Assembly (NCBI GenBank): GCA_016700375.1 | Contig: CP065016.1 | Location: 570,001-602,000, forward strand | Direction of reading: 5' to 3' | DNA length: 32,000 nt | Source of the DNA: Candidatus Saccharimonadota bacterium | Lineage (GTDB): Bacteria; Patescibacteriota; Saccharimonadia; Saccharimonadales; UBA4665 | Shown here: one piece after another, positions 19,221-29,726 of the stretch | Layout: each line of letters begins with the position of its first letter | Position numbering within the stretch: position 1 is the first letter of the stretch | Program-made: the position numbers and the translations under genes | The notes under the pieces: generated by a model | Told to the model about the DNA's origin: nothing | Seen by the model: only the letters and a program-made list of their open reading frames with translations | The model's database searches: none

Positions 19221-22106
19221 CTAGGCCTTTTTGAGCGCGATGGTCAGGCGCAGGCCTTCGATGTTCGCTTCGGTACAAAAAGCGCCTGTGCCGGGCTCTA
19301 CAAAGGCCTGGGTTAACGTTTCTGCCTGAATCGTCCGCTCGTGCTCAGCAAGCGCAGCCATGAGTTCTTTATCTTCCGCAGTCAGCAGCAAGACAATCCT
19401 GTCATCCACCTGCAGCCCAGCCTGCTTACGGGCGTTTTGCACCGCTCGTACTACCTCGCGGGCCATGCCCTCTCTCTTGAGTTCTGGTGTTATATTTTTG
19501 TCAACAGTAACAGCCAGTTTCACTTCATTGACGTGTTTAACTTCTTTCACATTCACTTCATCGGCAATGATTGCCTCGTAGTACTCACCGAGTTTGTCGC
19601 TACCGTATGTCAGGGCTGCTAGGGGCTGTCGAACCTTCACCTGGGGCTCTGTTTCTGTCTTAAACATGCGTGCAGCCAAGCCCTGCTCTATGACACTCCT
19701 GGTCTGTGCCATACGTTCTAGTACTGTCTCGTCTACGGCACCAGGCTCTGGCCAGTCAAGCAAATGCACACTCTCGCCGCCAGTCAGTTTCTGGTACAGT
19801 TCTTCTGCTAGAAACGGCGTAAACGGTGCGAGCAGCAGACTAAGGCGCGCGAGCACATAATGCAAGGTGCGATATGCATCATGCTTGTCGGCATCGTCGT
19901 CGCTTTTCCAAAAACGCCTACGGCTGCGACGGACATACCAGTTGCTGGCATCGTCCAAAAACGGCAAGACGCCACTGAGGGCATCGGGCAAATTATAACC
20001 GTCTAAATCAGTAGTCATTTGTGCTTGCAGTTGATGTAAACGTGACACCACCCATGTATCAAGCGGGTTGGTTAACTCCTTAGAAGGATCTTCGAGCGAG
20101 TCATTCCACTCCCAGCCATCCACCTCGGCATACATTGTAAAAAAGTCATACATGTTCCACACCATCGCCAGTTTGCGCTGGATATCTTGCACATCCTTGT
20201 CTTGCAAGCTAAAGTCTTCACCACTCATAACGGGCGAGCTCAGCAGCAAAAATCGTAGTGCATCGGCACTGTATTCATCCATGAGTATGTTTGGATCGGT
20301 GTAGTTACCATAGCTTTTACTCATTTTGCGGCCATCGTTGCCGGCGAGAGTACCCGTCACGATACAGTTTGAAAACGAGTTCTTCTCGAACAGCCCCACC
20401 GATACGGCGTGTAGGTAGTAAAACCACGCCCGCACCTGACCGACGTATTCGGCTATATAATCACCCGGGAAACTAGCCTCAAACTTCTCTTTGTTCTCAA
20501 ACGGATAGTGGAACTGCGCAAATGGCATGCTACCACTCTCAAACCAACAGTCCATGACCTTGTCGATACGCGTGTAGTGCACACCATCTAGGTCAAACTC
20601 TACGTCATCAATCCATGGGCGGTGGTAATCATCGAGCTCAACACCGCTCAGCTCTTTCAGCTCGGCGTAACTACCCACGACCTTCACGCGCTCCTTCCCG
20701 TCCGCATCCGTGCCCTTCCACACCGGCATAGCGGTAGCCCAGAAGCGGTCGCGGCTGAGGTTCCAGTCCGGCGCACTCTCGACAGTTTTGGCAAAGCGAC
20801 CATGTTTGACATGCCCCGGGAACCAATTGATGTTTTCGTTCTGCTCCAGCATGTCCTGGCGTTGCCCGGCAATGTCCATGAACCAGCTTGGGTGCGCTCG
20901 GTACATGAGCTTCGTACCGCAGCGGTGACAGTGCGGGTATTCGTGGCGAACGTACTCTATTTTGAGCGCCTTGCCTTCAGCCAGCAACGTCTTAGCAATA
21001 TCTTTGTTCACGTCCCATATGTTCTGGCCTTCCCACGCGCCTTCTGTGTAGTTCCCGTTTTCGTCCACAATTGAGACAAGCGGAATGTTGTGCTCTTTAC
21101 ATAGAACGTAGTCTTCCTCACCATATGCAGGGGCTTCATGTACTATTCCCGTACCGTCATCGGCCGTCACAAAGTGGGCGTCAAGCACCCGGTGCGCACC
21201 TTCGCCGCGGTGTTCAAAGAGTGGCTCATAGGCTTTTCCAACCAGTTCTGACCCCTGTATCTTTTTTACAACGTTGTAAGCCAATGGCTGATGCCTCTCG
21301 TCGGTCATCACCCTGGCAATCGCCGCCGTTGCTACATAGAAGCGCTTGCCAGCGTGCTCGAGCAGTGAGTACTCTGTGTCACCCTTTACTGCCACTGCAA
21401 CGTTCGCTGGAAGCGTCCAGGGTGTTGTAGTCCATGCTAAGAGAAACTCGTCAGAATCTGCCAATTTGAAGTACGCGTAGATGCTTGGGTCGGTATCTTG
21501 CTGGTAGCTATTGTCCATTGCCACCTCGGCTTTAGAAATAGGCGTGGCGTCACGCGTGCAGTACATGAGCACCTTTTCGCCTTCATATATTTTGCCCTTT
21601 TCGTACAGTTCCTTAAACGCCCACCAGACCGATTCCATGAATTCTTTATCCATGGTTTTGTATGCACCTTTGAAGTCCACCCAGCGGCCAATCCGGTCGA
21701 TGGTACTTTCCCACAAGTCACCCGTTTGCACCATATTGTCTCGGCACGTGGTAATGTACTCCTCGAGTGATATCTTGGTCCCGATATCTCGCTTATCTTG
21801 TATGCCCAGCTTTTTCTCGGTAAATACTTCAGCCGGCAGGCCATGACAGTCCCAGCCCCAAACGCGTTCAACCCGGCGCCCCTTCATGGTCCAGTAGCGT
21901 GGCACCGCGTCTTTCGCAACGCTAGAAAGCAATGTACCGTGGTGTGGCACGCCCGTGATAAACGGCGGCCCATCGTAAAACACATATGCACCCTCTTTTG
22001 GCCGTTGCTCAACCGACTTCTCGAATGTACGGTTCTCTTTCCAGTACCGCACCAGGTCCTTCTCGTACTCTATAGCCTTCCGCCGTGTATTTGCTTTGAA
22101 TTTCAT
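19221..22106 (-). CDS. ileS: Isoleucyl-tRNA synthetase, eukaryote-like (type 2), paralog 1
   Basis: 961 aa.
- FYDGPPFITGVPHHGTLLSS is the class I HIGH region in the type-2 IleRS context.
- WTTTPWTLPAN and GTGIVHEAPAYGEEDY are the CP1 editing motifs.
- MDCWFESGSMPFAQ and GRKMSKSYGN (KMSKS) are present.
- The start codon overlaps the SGNH stop (ATGA). Confidence 0.9.
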   Translation of the reverse strand: MKFKANTRRKAIEYEKDLVRYWKENRTFEKSVEQRPKEGAYVFYDGPPFITGVPHHGTLLSSVAKDAVPRYWTMKGRRVERVWGWDCHGLPAEVFTEKKLGIQDKRDIGTKISLEEYITTCRDNMVQTGDLWESTIDRIGRWVDFKGAYKTMDKEFMESVWWAFKELYEKGKIYEGEKVLMYCTRDATPISKAEVAMDNSYQQDTDPSIYAYFKLADSDEFLLAWTTTPWTLPANVAVAVKGDTEYSLLEHAGKRFYVATAAIARVMTDERHQPLAYNVVKKIQGSELVGKAYEPLFEHRGEGAHRVLDAHFVTADDGTGIVHEAPAYGEEDYVLCKEHNIPLVSIVDENGNYTEGAWEGQNIWDVNKDIAKTLLAEGKALKIEYVRHEYPHCHRCGTKLMYRAHPSWFMDIAGQRQDMLEQNENINWFPGHVKHGRFAKTVESAPDWNLSRDRFWATAMPVWKGTDADGKERVKVVGSYAELKELSGVELDDYHRPWIDDVEFDLDGVHYTRIDKVMDCWFESGSMPFAQFHYPFENKEKFEASFPGDYIAEYVGQVRAWFYYLHAVSVGLFEKNSFSNCIVTGTLAGNDGRKMSKSYGNYTDPNILMDEYSADALRFLLLSSPVMSGEDFSLQDKDVQDIQRKLAMVWNMYDFFTMYAEVDGWEWNDSLEDPSKELTNPLDTWVVSRLHQLQAQMTTDLDGYNLPDALSGVLPFLDDASNWYVRRSRRRFWKSDDDADKHDAYRTLHYVLARLSLLLAPFTPFLAEELYQKLTGGESVHLLDWPEPGAVDETVLERMAQTRSVIEQGLAARMFKTETEPQVKVRQPLAALTYGSDKLGEYYEAIIADEVNVKEVKHVNEVKLAVTVDKNITPELKREGMAREVVRAVQNARKQAGLQVDDRIVLLLTAEDKELMAALAEHERTIQAETLTQAFVEPGTGAFCTEANIEGLRLTIALKKA

Positions 22107-22696
22107 ATTCCCATCTCCGTTAATTTAGTTTTCATCAGCTTACTCATTTCTTCATGTCCCTCTGGAGAAAAATGCACCCCGTCACTCGAGAGGCTTATCT
22201 CACCCGGAATAATTACTTGTTCGCCGGACCCTTCAAGCAACGCAACCAGCGCCTGCTGTTTCTCTTCGCTGCCCATAAAAGCCTGGCTACGCCTGAAGTT
22301 TGGTGGAGCAATATACATAATGCTTGCAGGCGCAACGTATACATCCTCACTCAGTTGAGCCACCGCGTCTCTGTACCACAATAAGTCATCATATATTTGG
22401 TCTGGCGTGAAGCTGTACTTATCTTTGCAGTCATTTGTGCCAAGTGCGATGATGACGAGGTTAAGCGGCGAAGCTTGCCTGCAGATGACTTCAAATGAGT
22501 CTTTTCCATTTTTACTTTGGTCAGCATGATCGTAGCCGCCCGCAATCCTGCCTGGGAGCCCGGCGGGCTGCACCTCATGGCCATCGCCAAGTTGTTTTTG
22601 AAGCTGGTTCACCCACCGAGCCTGAGCAGAATACCGTTTCAGGTTATCATCCTGCCCCCAAACATTTGAATCGCCATATATTAATATATTTTTCAT
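22103..22696 (-). CDS. SGNH/GDSL-family hydrolase (esterase/lipase-like)
   Basis: All four SGNH blocks are present: block I IYGDSNVWG, block II GLPGR, block III LGTNDC, block V DGVHFSPEGH. ATGA overlaps at both ends couple it to the GNAT and ileS genes. Confidence 0.8.
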   Translation of the reverse strand: MKNILIYGDSNVWGQDDNLKRYSAQARWVNQLQKQLGDGHEVQPAGLPGRIAGGYDHADQSKNGKDSFEVICRQASPLNLVIIALGTNDCKDKYSFTPDQIYDDLLWYRDAVAQLSEDVYVAPASIMYIAPPNFRRSQAFMGSEEKQQALVALLEGSGEQVIIPGEISLSSDGVHFSPEGHEEMSKLMKTKLTEMGI

Positions 22697-23223
22697 ATTC
22701 TGGGCTCCCTTCTCATTTTGATTGATGGCATCTTATCAGCATGCATATAGTCAGATCCTGAAACTTTTTTAAAGCCTTGCTTCTCATAAAACCGCTTGGC
22801 GCGTTCATTGTAATCAACGACCACTAGGTCAACTACCCGTTTCGCGTCCCAAAATGCATCAGCGTGCAGCATCAGCTCTGCAGCAAGGCCTGTCCCTTGG
22901 TACTCACGGGCAATGTACAGCGCACCCAATTCCTGATCTTCCTTGTGGCGAGTCGCATGCACAAACCCAACGACTGCGTCGTTTACAACAGCGACCTCGT
23001 ATAGCTGATCCGGGTCGGCTATAAAGCCTGTTACTAGTTCGCGACTTTCCTTAAGCTTTTCGGGTGAATCCCAGCTTTCCCATCGCTCGCGCACCCATGA
23101 CTCTGGCACACCAGCGTTGTCATTTGGATAGGTGTCGAGCCAAGACGCGGCATGAAACTTACGTATAGCGTAGGTATCGTCGGGTGTCGCGGTACGGATT
23201 GCTGGCTTAGCTTCTTCACTCAT
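22693..23223 (-). CDS. GNAT-family N-acetyltransferase, copy 1
   Basis: 176 aa. It has the acetyl-CoA motif A region (ALYIAREYQGTGLAAELM) and the C-terminal NERAKRFYEKQGF. GGAG lies 6 nt upstream of the ATG. It is the first gene after the T-box leader. Confidence 0.8.
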   Translation of the reverse strand: MSEEAKPAIRTATPDDTYAIRKFHAASWLDTYPNDNAGVPESWVRERWESWDSPEKLKESRELVTGFIADPDQLYEVAVVNDAVVGFVHATRHKEDQELGALYIAREYQGTGLAAELMLHADAFWDAKRVVDLVVVDYNERAKRFYEKQGFKKVSGSDYMHADKMPSIKMRREPRI

Positions 23224-29690: not shown

Positions 29691-29696
29691 ACTGCA

Positions 29697-29726
29697 AGTA
29701 TACGCCCTCCCACCCACCTAGCACAA
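29697..29726 (-). promoter_or_regulatory. Candidate promoter of operon 2 (identical to the operon 1 promoter)
   Basis: TTGTGC (29726-29721), 18 nt, TATACT (29702-29697), inside the block that is identical between the two units. Confidence 0.4.

Follow-up and report, generated by a model that had tools for sequence, protein, structure and literature searches.

Two ileS operons of apparently different descent, each behind a predicted T-box(Ile) leader, stand in tandem in a Saccharibacterial genome

Two operons for isoleucyl-tRNA synthetase (IleRS) lie one behind the other on the minus strand of contig CP065016.1 of a Candidatus Saccharimonadota bacterium (assembly GCA_016700375.1), within the 32,000-nt stretch from position 570,001 to 602,000 that we analyzed and call the window. 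Each operon is preceded by a predicted T-box(Ile) leader and opens with the gene for a GNAT acetyltransferase. In our reading, to which we assign a probability of roughly 0.65, the window shows an ordinary ileS locus of a Saccharibacterium (TM7) that is present in two heterologous tandem copies. An earlier note, made from the DNA sequence of the window, had proposed an inducible IleRS-backup or inhibitor-resistance island instead.

Gene families were assigned by Pfam and NCBIfam scans of the open reading frames (ORFs) of the window, and RNA structures were searched with the Rfam T-box model RF00230 at its gathering cut-off of 93 bits. The comparison set comprised 80 related ileS loci, one per species and almost all labeled Saccharibacteria/Saccharimonadales. 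Further loci (L081-L091) were reached via protein look-ups, beyond the 80.

Gene content and affiliation of the two operons

The ORF map bears out what the earlier note had described for both minus-strand operons, namely their ORFs, strands and 4-nt ATGA overlaps, and every gene family named there was recovered by Pfam. Operon 1 consists of GNAT-1 (176 aa, 22693..23223), which matches Pfam GNAT families and gives an AlphaFold model with a pLDDT of 94, an SGNH/GDSL hydrolase (22103..22696; PF13472 and PF00657) joined to its neighbors by ATGA overlaps on both sides, and IleRS-1 (961 aa, 19221..22106; TIGR00392 ileS, 784 bits). Operon 2 begins with GNAT-2 (28946..29473, 175 aa counted from ATG), a member of the same ileS-linked GNAT subfamily that is 66% identical to GNAT-1. 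Homologues support this ATG as the start codon, and the TTG at 29488 merely gives the longest ORF. A CdiA_C-like gene follows, then IleRS-2 (965 aa, 25539..28436; TIGR00392, 788 bits) and, as the last gene, a peptidase C26/class-I glutamine amidotransferase-like gene (24871..25542; PF07722, E 1.3e-40) that shares an ATGA overlap with IleRS-2. Homologues of the C26 gene were found 3' of ileS in six loci (L002, L021, L022, L028, L036, and L048), and homologues of the SGNH gene at the equivalent position in L001, L002, L036, L048, L080, and L085.

Both IleRS proteins are of the eukaryote-like type, and their HHGT signature motif, KMSKS and editing-domain motifs are intact. Both genes are complete and apparently functional, so that the earlier claim of two complete IleRS genes, each behind a tRNA-Ile-sensing leader, is borne out by these motifs and by the leader comparison given below. 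The two proteins are 77% identical overall; identity is 90% in both catalytic Rossmann halves and drops to 55.5% for CP1 and 65% for the C-terminal domain. The earlier note had suggested placing them among the IleRS of close relatives; in a neighbor-joining tree the two copies fall in separate groups, IleRS-1 joining L001/L003/L004 and IleRS-2 joining L002/L028. A recent duplication within the genome is ruled out by this tree together with the synonymous divergence (dS) between the two copies, which is saturated. These comparisons indicate that IleRS-1 and IleRS-2 are not sister paralogs and that IleRS-2 is the allele of another clade at the same locus.

Operon 1 is the resident version of the locus because L001, a relative with a single ileS and no IS (insertion sequence), is 95.4% identical at the nucleotide level to window positions 17532-23413 and has the gene order Trx-like gene, leader, GNAT, SGNH, IleRS, Cas2-like gene and rplU. 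At the protein level, IleRS-1 is 99% identical to its counterpart in L001, and the product of rplU (L21; 18002..18319, minus strand), which follows ileS in most related loci as its conserved downstream neighbor, is 100% identical to those of L001 and L048. dS between the window and L001 is uniform across the shared stretch (0.07-0.17). The corresponding ratios of nonsynonymous to synonymous divergence (dN/dS) are 0.036 for IleRS-1, 0.185 for GNAT-1, and 0.29 for the SGNH hydrolase; GNAT-1 and SGNH are functional genes under purifying selection, with a constraint weaker than that on IleRS.

The closest relatives of IleRS-2 are the proteins of L002 (84%) and L028 (83%), and these two loci carry CdiA_C-like, IleRS and C26 genes in the arrangement of operon 2 at the identical syntenic site. 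The Trx-like small gene at 31243..31650 (minus strand), which as a conserved neighbor precedes the ileS leader in the majority of the 80 loci, is likewise nearer to L002 and L028 than to L001 (86% amino acid identity to L002 and 79% to L001). The GC content is 0.46-0.49 in operon 2 and the Trx-like gene, as against 0.52-0.53 in IleRS-1 and the left flank. Operon 2 and the adjoining Trx-like gene thus resemble, in sequence and order, the version of another clade. Two ileS genes in one locus were seen in none of the 80 related loci.

The leaders as a lineage-specific form of T-box(Ile)

Leader 1 spans 23233..23436 and leader 2 spans 29483..29689, both on the minus strand. The specifier AUC lies at 23402-23400 in leader 1 and at 29655-29653 in leader 2, and the T-box sequences are AGATGGTACC (23289-23280) and GGATGGTACC (29542-29533), respectively. 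Scanning with RF00230 at the gathering score gave no match in the whole window or in nine related loci. Leader 1 reached 33.5 bits against the required 93 (E 9.6e-6 in a 601-nt search), leader 2 had no RF00230 match at E<10 and just chance matches such as mir-1545, and none of the 11 leaders tested came up to the Rfam T-box threshold. In the Rfam alignment 90 model positions of Stem I are deleted and 35 nt are left, so a long Stem I with a distal platform is lacking. No tRNA genes were found in the window.

Comparison with related loci gives a different picture. The T-box motif [A/G]GAUGGUACC, i.e., [A/G]GATGG[N]ACC, is found in 75 of the 80 loci, some 70 nt before ileS or the first inserted gene, and it also precedes ileS or the first cargo gene in L081-L091. 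In both leaders of the window the specifier ATC (AUC, Ile), followed by A, stands in a 7-nt hairpin loop, GGCUAUCAACC, and it is invariant in leader alignments of n=56 and n=74 ileS leaders. The AGUAGA element and the T-box sequence are likewise conserved in these alignments.

For the structure test, a set of base pairs was written from leader 1 and counted on the aligned leaders, with slid 3' partners and 500 shuffles as controls. The pairs of the specifier hairpin, Stem II, Stem IIA, Stem III and the antiterminator formed in 83.5% of the cells, compared with 32-47% in the slid controls, and the observed covariation was reached by none of the 500 shuffles. Of the 49 pairs that make up the tRNA-bound form, 42 show double changes. 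Pairing reaches 91-99.6% in the specifier hairpin, at the base of Stem II, in Stem III, and in both antiterminator helices; the antiterminator helices A1 (98%) and A2 (93%) carry many double changes and differ in a compensatory manner between the two leaders themselves (CCAG/CTGG vs TCGG/CCGA). The terminator hairpin of leader 1 (23237-23312) is its minimum-free-energy fold, a hairpin of 76 nt with a U-run after it (z -4.9). Across the family the terminator is 90.5% paired, and its basal helix (82-92%) shows compensatory changes. Stem III and the terminator base share nucleotides (columns 224-228), and covariation supports both; selection therefore acts on two alternative structures, which is a riboswitch signature.

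Taken together, the leader form comprises an ultrashort Stem I with the 7-nt AUC loop, a Stem II that contains an S-turn, the IIA/B pseudoknot, Stem III and a discriminator, and we assign both leaders on comparative grounds to the T-box(Ile) class in a form specific to this lineage. The earlier prediction of a T-box(Ile) before each operon is thereby supported by about 70 related leaders, through the AUC specifier, the T-box sequence and covariation, and not by Rfam. Leader 1 can form 49/49 tRNA-bound pairs and 24/24 terminator pairs. Leader 2 forms 47/49 and 21/24, respectively, and its IIA/B pseudoknot is weakened; as it loses pseudoknot pairs and two terminator pairs, leader 2 may be leakier than leader 1.

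In the mechanism that we propose, the GAU anticodon of uncharged tRNA-Ile would pair with the AUC specifier and its free NCCA end with the UGGU bulge. Binding of the tRNA would stabilize Stem III and the antiterminator and block the base of the terminator, so that both operons would be read through.

IS481-like copies and gene conversion around operon 2

Operon 2 is bracketed by two IS481-like copies in the same orientation, one upstream of each leader, that are 99.86% identical over 1387 nt. Copy 1 (1387 bp, 23482..24868, plus strand) contains an intact transposase gene (23571-24818, 415 aa; Pfam rve), whose product matches the NCBIfam IS481 family with E 2e-14, below the cut-off; the C26 stop codon lies 2 nt from the end of this copy. 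In copy 2 (29735..31120, plus strand) the transposase frame is broken and the remaining ORF covers 30045-31070. The earlier note had not mentioned this element. The direct copies on both sides of operon 2 lend substance to its comparison with mupA, an extra IleRS gene bracketed by IS copies.

The repeated block is longer than the IS. Over 1524 bp, positions 23345-24868 equal 29598-31120 save for one indel and one single-nucleotide difference. The sole indel, A6 (23731-23736) as against A5 (29984-29988), is what breaks the transposase frame of copy 2, and it could be a real transposase-inactivating frameshift or a sequencing error. Looking for clean IS termini, we found only a 12-nt terminal inverted repeat, TTCAGGCTCATT, at 23496-23507 and 24837-24848.

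The remainder of the repeat, 23345..23481 (minus strand), is not IS sequence. It holds the promoter and the Stem I/Stem II part of leader 1 and is 100% identical to 29598-29734 over 137 bp. Promoter 1 (-35 TTGTGC at 23473-23468, -10 TATACT at 23449-23444, minus strand) is homologous to the IS-free promoter of L001 (TTGCGC/TATGAT); promoter 2 (-35 at 29726-29721, -10 at 29702-29697, minus strand) lies upstream of leader 2. We ruled out that the 5' leader half belongs to the IS, given this homology and a junction that is in register within the leader. The Stem I/II sequence of leader 1 is unlike that of L001 and equal to that of leader 2, and downstream of the repeat block the two leaders are about 80% identical. 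A join in register inside a structured leader points to homologous recombination, namely gene conversion between tandem units, which we consider the sole possible source. We therefore infer a tract of gene conversion that homogenized the IS copies, both promoters and the 5' leader halves.

For the history of the locus, these comparisons suggest that operon 2 arrived by recombination in which the IS took part, and the two IS481-like copies now flank it. Later gene conversion between the direct repeats would have produced the identical IS copies, promoters and 5' leader halves. The tandem may be a transient merodiploid state, and the sequence contains no evidence of a benefit from the second IleRS.

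The same arrangement would also be seen if the assembler had fused the sequences of two co-occurring populations, each with its own ileS cassette, across the IS and leader repeat common to both. Such a chimera would account for the fact that the sequence to the left of IS copy 1 is 95% L001-like while operon 2 and the Trx-like gene have a lower GC content and resemble another clade; the locus is variable between relatives, and the contig of L001 ends at the Trx-like gene and within the giant gene described below. It would, however, need IS copies on both sides of operon 2 in one population; the other would have to carry this IS at the matching site, next to an identical non-IS flank of 137 bp, although the neighboring sequence of the two organisms would differ by 20%. 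Moreover, the C26/IS junction must exist in some molecule, while single-copy relatives have rplU or the Cas2-like gene after C26. The two IS copies were also not collapsed into one but kept distinct, with one single-nucleotide difference and one homopolymer indel between them, and leader 1 has a 5' half unlike that of L001 and equal to that of leader 2, which fits gene conversion within one genome. For these reasons we regard a chimeric assembly as improbable.

Several observations weigh against two heterologous tandem copies of the locus as we read them. The tandem on one molecule is as given by the assembly; the C26/IS and IS/promoter junctions had no matches in metagenome scans and were not seen in other assemblies, a point that also favors a chimera, and the exact IleRS-2 and transposase proteins have no record elsewhere. 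Neither IS copy, nor the composite as a whole, showed target-site duplications. The outer flanks of the composite (…GCTCCACT and TCCCTTGT…) share no repeat, which is a weak test as the left flank lies inside the converted tract. The Trx-like gene that adjoins IS copy 2 is of a type other than that of L001, so that a simple composite-transposon insertion into an L001-like chromosome does not account for everything. The T-box assignment is comparative and the Rfam threshold is not reached. Finally, a terminator combined with an ultrashort Stem I departs from the described pattern, in which T-boxes with a short Stem I are translational and transcriptional ones generally need a long Stem I (PMC7583486).

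The ileS locus across the lineage and exchange of its cassettes

The order Trx-like gene, leader, ileS, rplU is found in most of the 80 loci, and the window has the same frame with two ileS operons inside it. A T-box before ileS between the Trx-like gene and rplU is thus core synteny of the lineage. This takes away the special role that the earlier note had given to the T-box as a sensor; with the motif preceding ileS in 75 of 80 species, it represents the ordinary control of ileS in these bacteria.

In 18 of 75 loci, about a quarter, one to three small genes of diverse families are inserted as cargo between T-box and ileS. GNAT genes account for eight loci, SGNH genes for five and CdiA_C-like genes for two; the other cargo consists of a HAD hydrolase, cupins, a RibD_C reductase-like protein, an ArsC-family protein, and one unknown protein, and a TehB-type methyltransferase and an AAA_33 protein occur in further loci. 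Judging by this distribution, the enzymes other than GNAT are patchy cargo at the ileS site. In two loci an enzyme domain is inserted into IleRS itself at the start of the CP1/editing region: the 1128-aa IleRS of L086 (5485-8871) carries LMWPc at residues 231-369, and the 1182-aa IleRS of L087 (5375-8923) a serine hydrolase at residues 261-430.

Whole ileS cassettes are exchanged between close relatives, because L048 is 97% identical to the window at the nucleotide level around rplU (9661-10439 vs 17532-18310) yet its IleRS is only 68% identical; the corresponding values are 51% for SGNH and 62% for C26.

The spacer between ileS and rplU has a content of its own. In the window it contains a Cas2-like/PaaX_M ORF of 159 aa (18465-18944, plus strand) bracketed by two copies of a perfect 35-nt palindrome (18422-18456 and 18947-18981). 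The Cas2-like gene is also present in L001, L003, L021, and L036, and the window has no CRISPR array. In other GNAT-ileS loci a ParE-toxin pair occupies this place (L081, 9701-10254; L082, 7387-7940). The ParE pair, the Cas2-like ORF and C26 show that small genes of an accessory or selfish nature accumulate in the ileS-rplU spacer as well.

A GNAT subfamily linked to ileS

Wherever the context of a close or medium relative was examined, the GNAT gene immediately preceded ileS, in 15 independent contexts and often with overlapping stop and start codons; the gene is present in about 10% of related species. An exhaustive profile search returned 74 cluster representatives at E<=1e-30, all of them stand-alone proteins, and no GNAT-IleRS fusion was among the best 150 of 24,824 GNAT matches. 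One member at greater distance (E 1e-28) is located among clustered pentose-phosphate genes. In these surveys the subfamily is found essentially only beside ileS.

Its score on the RimI model is 39.5 bits against a cut-off of 86.4. The earlier note had held that its reading would fall if both operons were core synteny and the GNAT a housekeeping acetyltransferase. The T-box-ileS unit indeed turned out to be core synteny, whereas the GNAT is not a housekeeping acetyltransferase, as it misses the RimI cut-off and sits upstream of ileS in relatives. With the model and a profile search, the nearest solved structures are uncharacterized GNATs, PaiA, ArsN/phosphinothricin (PAT) and N-terminal acetyltransferases. 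Its top 50 fold matches and top 60 profile matches include neither MccE nor RimL, and Acetyltransf_3 is a weak secondary match for GNAT-1 (E 7e-6) and absent for GNAT-2. The likeness to MccE and MccF that had been suggested for the GNAT and the hydrolases is not supported, since the GNAT has no particular relation to MccE or RimL and the SGNH and C26 proteins are unrelated to MccF.

A toxin of the TacT/AtaT/ItaT kind was also considered. AtaT and KacT are marginal sequence matches of the GNAT, and a toxin was ruled out because the gene comes first after the leader, overlaps the next enzyme gene and has no small partner ORF. PADLOC defense models matched none of the accessory genes, the Cas2-like ORF being the sole match, and we found no literature on IleRS together with a GNAT. 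The most likely target of the GNAT would be IleRS or an isoleucyl substrate, and this putative role is what we would assign to it.

An inducible island for IleRS backup or resistance to IleRS inhibitors, as the earlier note had it, would work as follows: an IleRS inhibitor or antimetabolite reduces the charging of tRNA-Ile, which opens both T-boxes and raises the dosage of IleRS through two enzymes that differ, and the GNAT, SGNH and C26 enzymes detoxify the inhibitor. Here an extra copy of an aminoacyl-tRNA synthetase is indeed flanked by IS copies, a mupirocin-induced T-box-ileS2 has a precedent in Priestia megaterium (bioRxiv 10.1101/2022.02.09.479832), GNAT and SGNH are under purifying selection, and the cargo comes almost entirely from families that modify small molecules (GNAT, SGNH esterase, methyltransferase, AAA_33 kinase-like protein, HAD phosphatase, cupin, and C26), to which the LMWPc and serine hydrolase domains inside the IleRS of L086 and L087 may be added. 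L001, L048 and the window are 95-97% identical at the nucleotide level in the rplU flank with IleRS identities of 68-99%, which could reflect diversifying selection on a drug target. However, the T-box is the default ileS control of the lineage, single-copy relatives carry the same cargo, making the cargo independent of the duplication, and the GNAT, SGNH and C26 proteins lack the specific MccE/RimL or MccF similarity that detoxification of this kind would suggest.

Nor do the enzymes themselves bear any mark of a resistant variant: they belong to one type, share the HHGT signature and have catalytic halves that are 90% identical. On the MupA and MupB models both IleRS score 630-650 bits against a cut-off of 1900. 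In a survey of 82 aligned Saccharibacterial IleRS, about 75, including both window copies (residues 55-58), have HxGT instead of HxGH in the signature motif. A G/AXHH variant of this motif has been tied to mupirocin hyper-resistance (PMC10485003); it is absent from both window IleRS, and HxGT is a different change. As, in addition, no resistance or defense model was matched and no inhibitor is known for the ecological setting, we consider the island unlikely; a resistance function of the operons is an unproven hypothesis.

The CdiA_C-like protein and its hairpin

The protein that the earlier note had called PD-(D/E)xK-like proved to be, more specifically, a CdiA_C homologue (PF18451, E 9e-15), encoded by a stand-alone gene for a PD-(D/E)xK nuclease homologue of 125 aa at 28534..28911 (minus strand). 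Its AlphaFold model has a pLDDT of 89, and the only significant fold match in the PDB is 4G6V_A (E 1e-6, TM 0.66), the CdiA-CT of Burkholderia pseudomallei 1026b, which we take to be the tRNase of a contact-dependent inhibition (CDI) system. A sequence search of the PDB with the same protein gave no match. The family is Saccharibacterial; all 36 homologue clusters consist of stand-alone proteins of 125-135 aa, with 70% mean identity and an invariant E..PD..ExK. In the window, L002, L028, and L085-L087 the gene comes shortly before ileS, whereas in L083 and L084 it is located elsewhere. The nuclease of the earlier note is thus a stand-alone, conserved relative of a CDI tRNase that is not confined to the neighborhood of ileS.

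A hairpin of 37-38 nt, in the window GGAACCGATGC-N15-GCATCGGTTC at 28486..28522 (minus strand), lies 3' of every CdiA_C-like gene and is conserved above the level of the flanking genes. It is invariant in L002 (5906-5942) and L028 (5911-5947) and near-invariant in L085-L087 (about 5396-5435). In L083 (about 5397-5435), where the gene is not next to ileS, the outer stem has undergone a compensatory change (GTAGGTGATGC/GCATCACCTAC). A T-run follows the hairpin on the opposite strand, and the hairpin had no Rfam match. No immunity-like gene accompanies the CdiA_C-like gene; the next 97 nt contain the hairpin alone, and then ileS begins. A CDI toxin-immunity pair, which the fold would match, was ruled out, as there is no partner gene and the protein is not the C-terminus of a large CdiA.

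A homing-endonuclease-like or toxin-like module, made up of gene and hairpin and lodged beside an essential gene, might through cutting or addiction be what drives the exchange of ileS cassettes, with the tandem as an intermediate, and this idea is compatible with two heterologous tandem copies. The gene and the hairpin always occur together, also at a non-ileS site with a compensated stem; the protein has a nuclease fold with invariant catalytic-type residues and no adjacent immunity gene; cassettes are swapped between close relatives; and other selfish modules occur in the locus, namely ParE in L081 and, in the window, the Cas2-like ORF between its palindromes. The mean identity of 70%, near that of the adjoining IleRS, looks rather like a cellular function than like a fast-evolving selfish gene, though, and cassettes also vary in relatives that do not have the gene (L001 and L048). 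No target site was identified. We give this proposal very little credence.

Flanking genes

Downstream of rplU, a giant ORF (6569-17608, minus strand, 3679 aa) contains long repeats in which Thr, Ser, Asn, and Gly abound (NNTLTGNTAQGN-type, beta-helix-like), and its product is probably located at the cell surface. L081 and L082 likewise have related giant genes after rplU. Further along, a PIN-domain (VapC-like) ORF lies at 5532-5918 (minus strand), and the majority of the remaining ORFs between 1 and 6500 match no Pfam family.

Discussion

The regulatory part of the two operons is ordinary for the lineage and yet represents an undescribed T-box variant, and what is unusual is the tandem of heterologous ileS genes and the ileS-specific GNAT. 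An ultrashort Stem I with an apparent intrinsic terminator is a combination held to be disfavored and is missed by the Rfam threshold, and it may occur in other Patescibacteria as well; we found no reports of T-boxes in Saccharibacteria or Patescibacteria in the literature. Saccharibacteria have very few regulators. The T-box may therefore be among their main amino-acid sensors.

A GNAT that is translationally coupled to IleRS across distant Saccharibacteria, together with enzymes inserted into the operon or into IleRS, points to an activity tied to isoleucyl-tRNA synthesis. One could go further and see in the T-box(Ile)-ileS operon a docking site for enzymes that act around IleRS (GNAT, SGNH, cupins, methyltransferase, kinase-like protein, and phosphatase or hydrolase domains inserted in CP1) and that give a charging-sensed protection against isoleucine antimetabolites or IleRS inhibitors, for instance from actinobacterial hosts, with cassettes being exchanged and this genome caught with two of them. 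This wider proposal seems to us quite unlikely. If the second copy and its cargo did protect against IleRS inhibitors, they would be the first antibiotic-response module described in the group. The exchange of an essential gene such as ileS as a cassette in a reduced-genome lineage, seen here as a heterologous tandem, bears on how the reduced genomes of epibionts recombine.

Comparison with known systems

Among known T-boxes, the leaders come closest to those of actinobacterial ileS genes (Sherwood et al., 2015; 6UFG, 6UFM; PMC7583486). They share with them the Ile specifier AUC plus purine, a short or ultrashort Stem I without the distal platform, the S-turn of Stem II (purines of the AGUAGA/GAGA type), the IIA/B pseudoknot, Stem III, the UGGU bulge for the tRNA ACCA end, and ileS as the controlled gene. 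The actinobacterial T-boxes are translational, whereas the expression platform in the window looks like an intrinsic terminator and the Shine-Dalgarno sequence lies outside the hairpin. Moreover, in described T-boxes the terminator competes with the 3' strand of the antiterminator, whereas here it encloses the antiterminator and competes with Stem III.

The accessory proteins have parallels of a looser kind. In NF040702 (isoleucine--tRNA ligase, N-acetyltransferase domain-containing), a GNAT is joined to IleRS in one polypeptide, which parallels the coupled GNAT and ileS genes described here; in the window the genes are separate and the IleRS proteins, with 282 and 274 bits against a cut-off of 1999, are not members of that family. 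In the case of MccE/RimL and MccF, GNATs and hydrolases likewise stand beside aminoacylation machinery, and a GNAT that acetylates alpha-amino groups is plausible here as well; MccF, however, belongs to family S66 and the hydrolases of the window are SGNH and C26 proteins. The CdiA_C-like protein shares with the B. pseudomallei CdiA-CT the PD-(D/E)xK fold and the acidic and lysine residues of PD..ExK. CdiA-CT is the tip of a large CdiA and is paired with CdiI, whereas the protein described here is stand-alone, highly conserved and chromosomally encoded, has no CdiI-like gene and is followed by a hairpin.

The extra IleRS gene of staphylococci, mupA (ileS2), is flanked by IS257. The pairing of a sensor with a duplicated target, part of a combination that was not known to the earlier note as a described system, was already reported in P. 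megaterium, where two ileS genes are preceded by T-boxes and one is induced by mupirocin (bioRxiv 10.1101/2022.02.09.479832). The window shares two IleRS per genome with the ileS1/ileS2 pairs of P. megaterium and other Bacillaceae and with staphylococcal mupA, a T-box before both ileS genes with P. megaterium, and the position of the extra copy between IS copies with mupA. In those systems the paired enzymes are members of separate clades with about 30% identity, and while one is sensitive the other is resistant. The two IleRS of the window, in contrast, are of the same type and 77% identical, and they are heterologous alleles of one syntenic locus standing in tandem.

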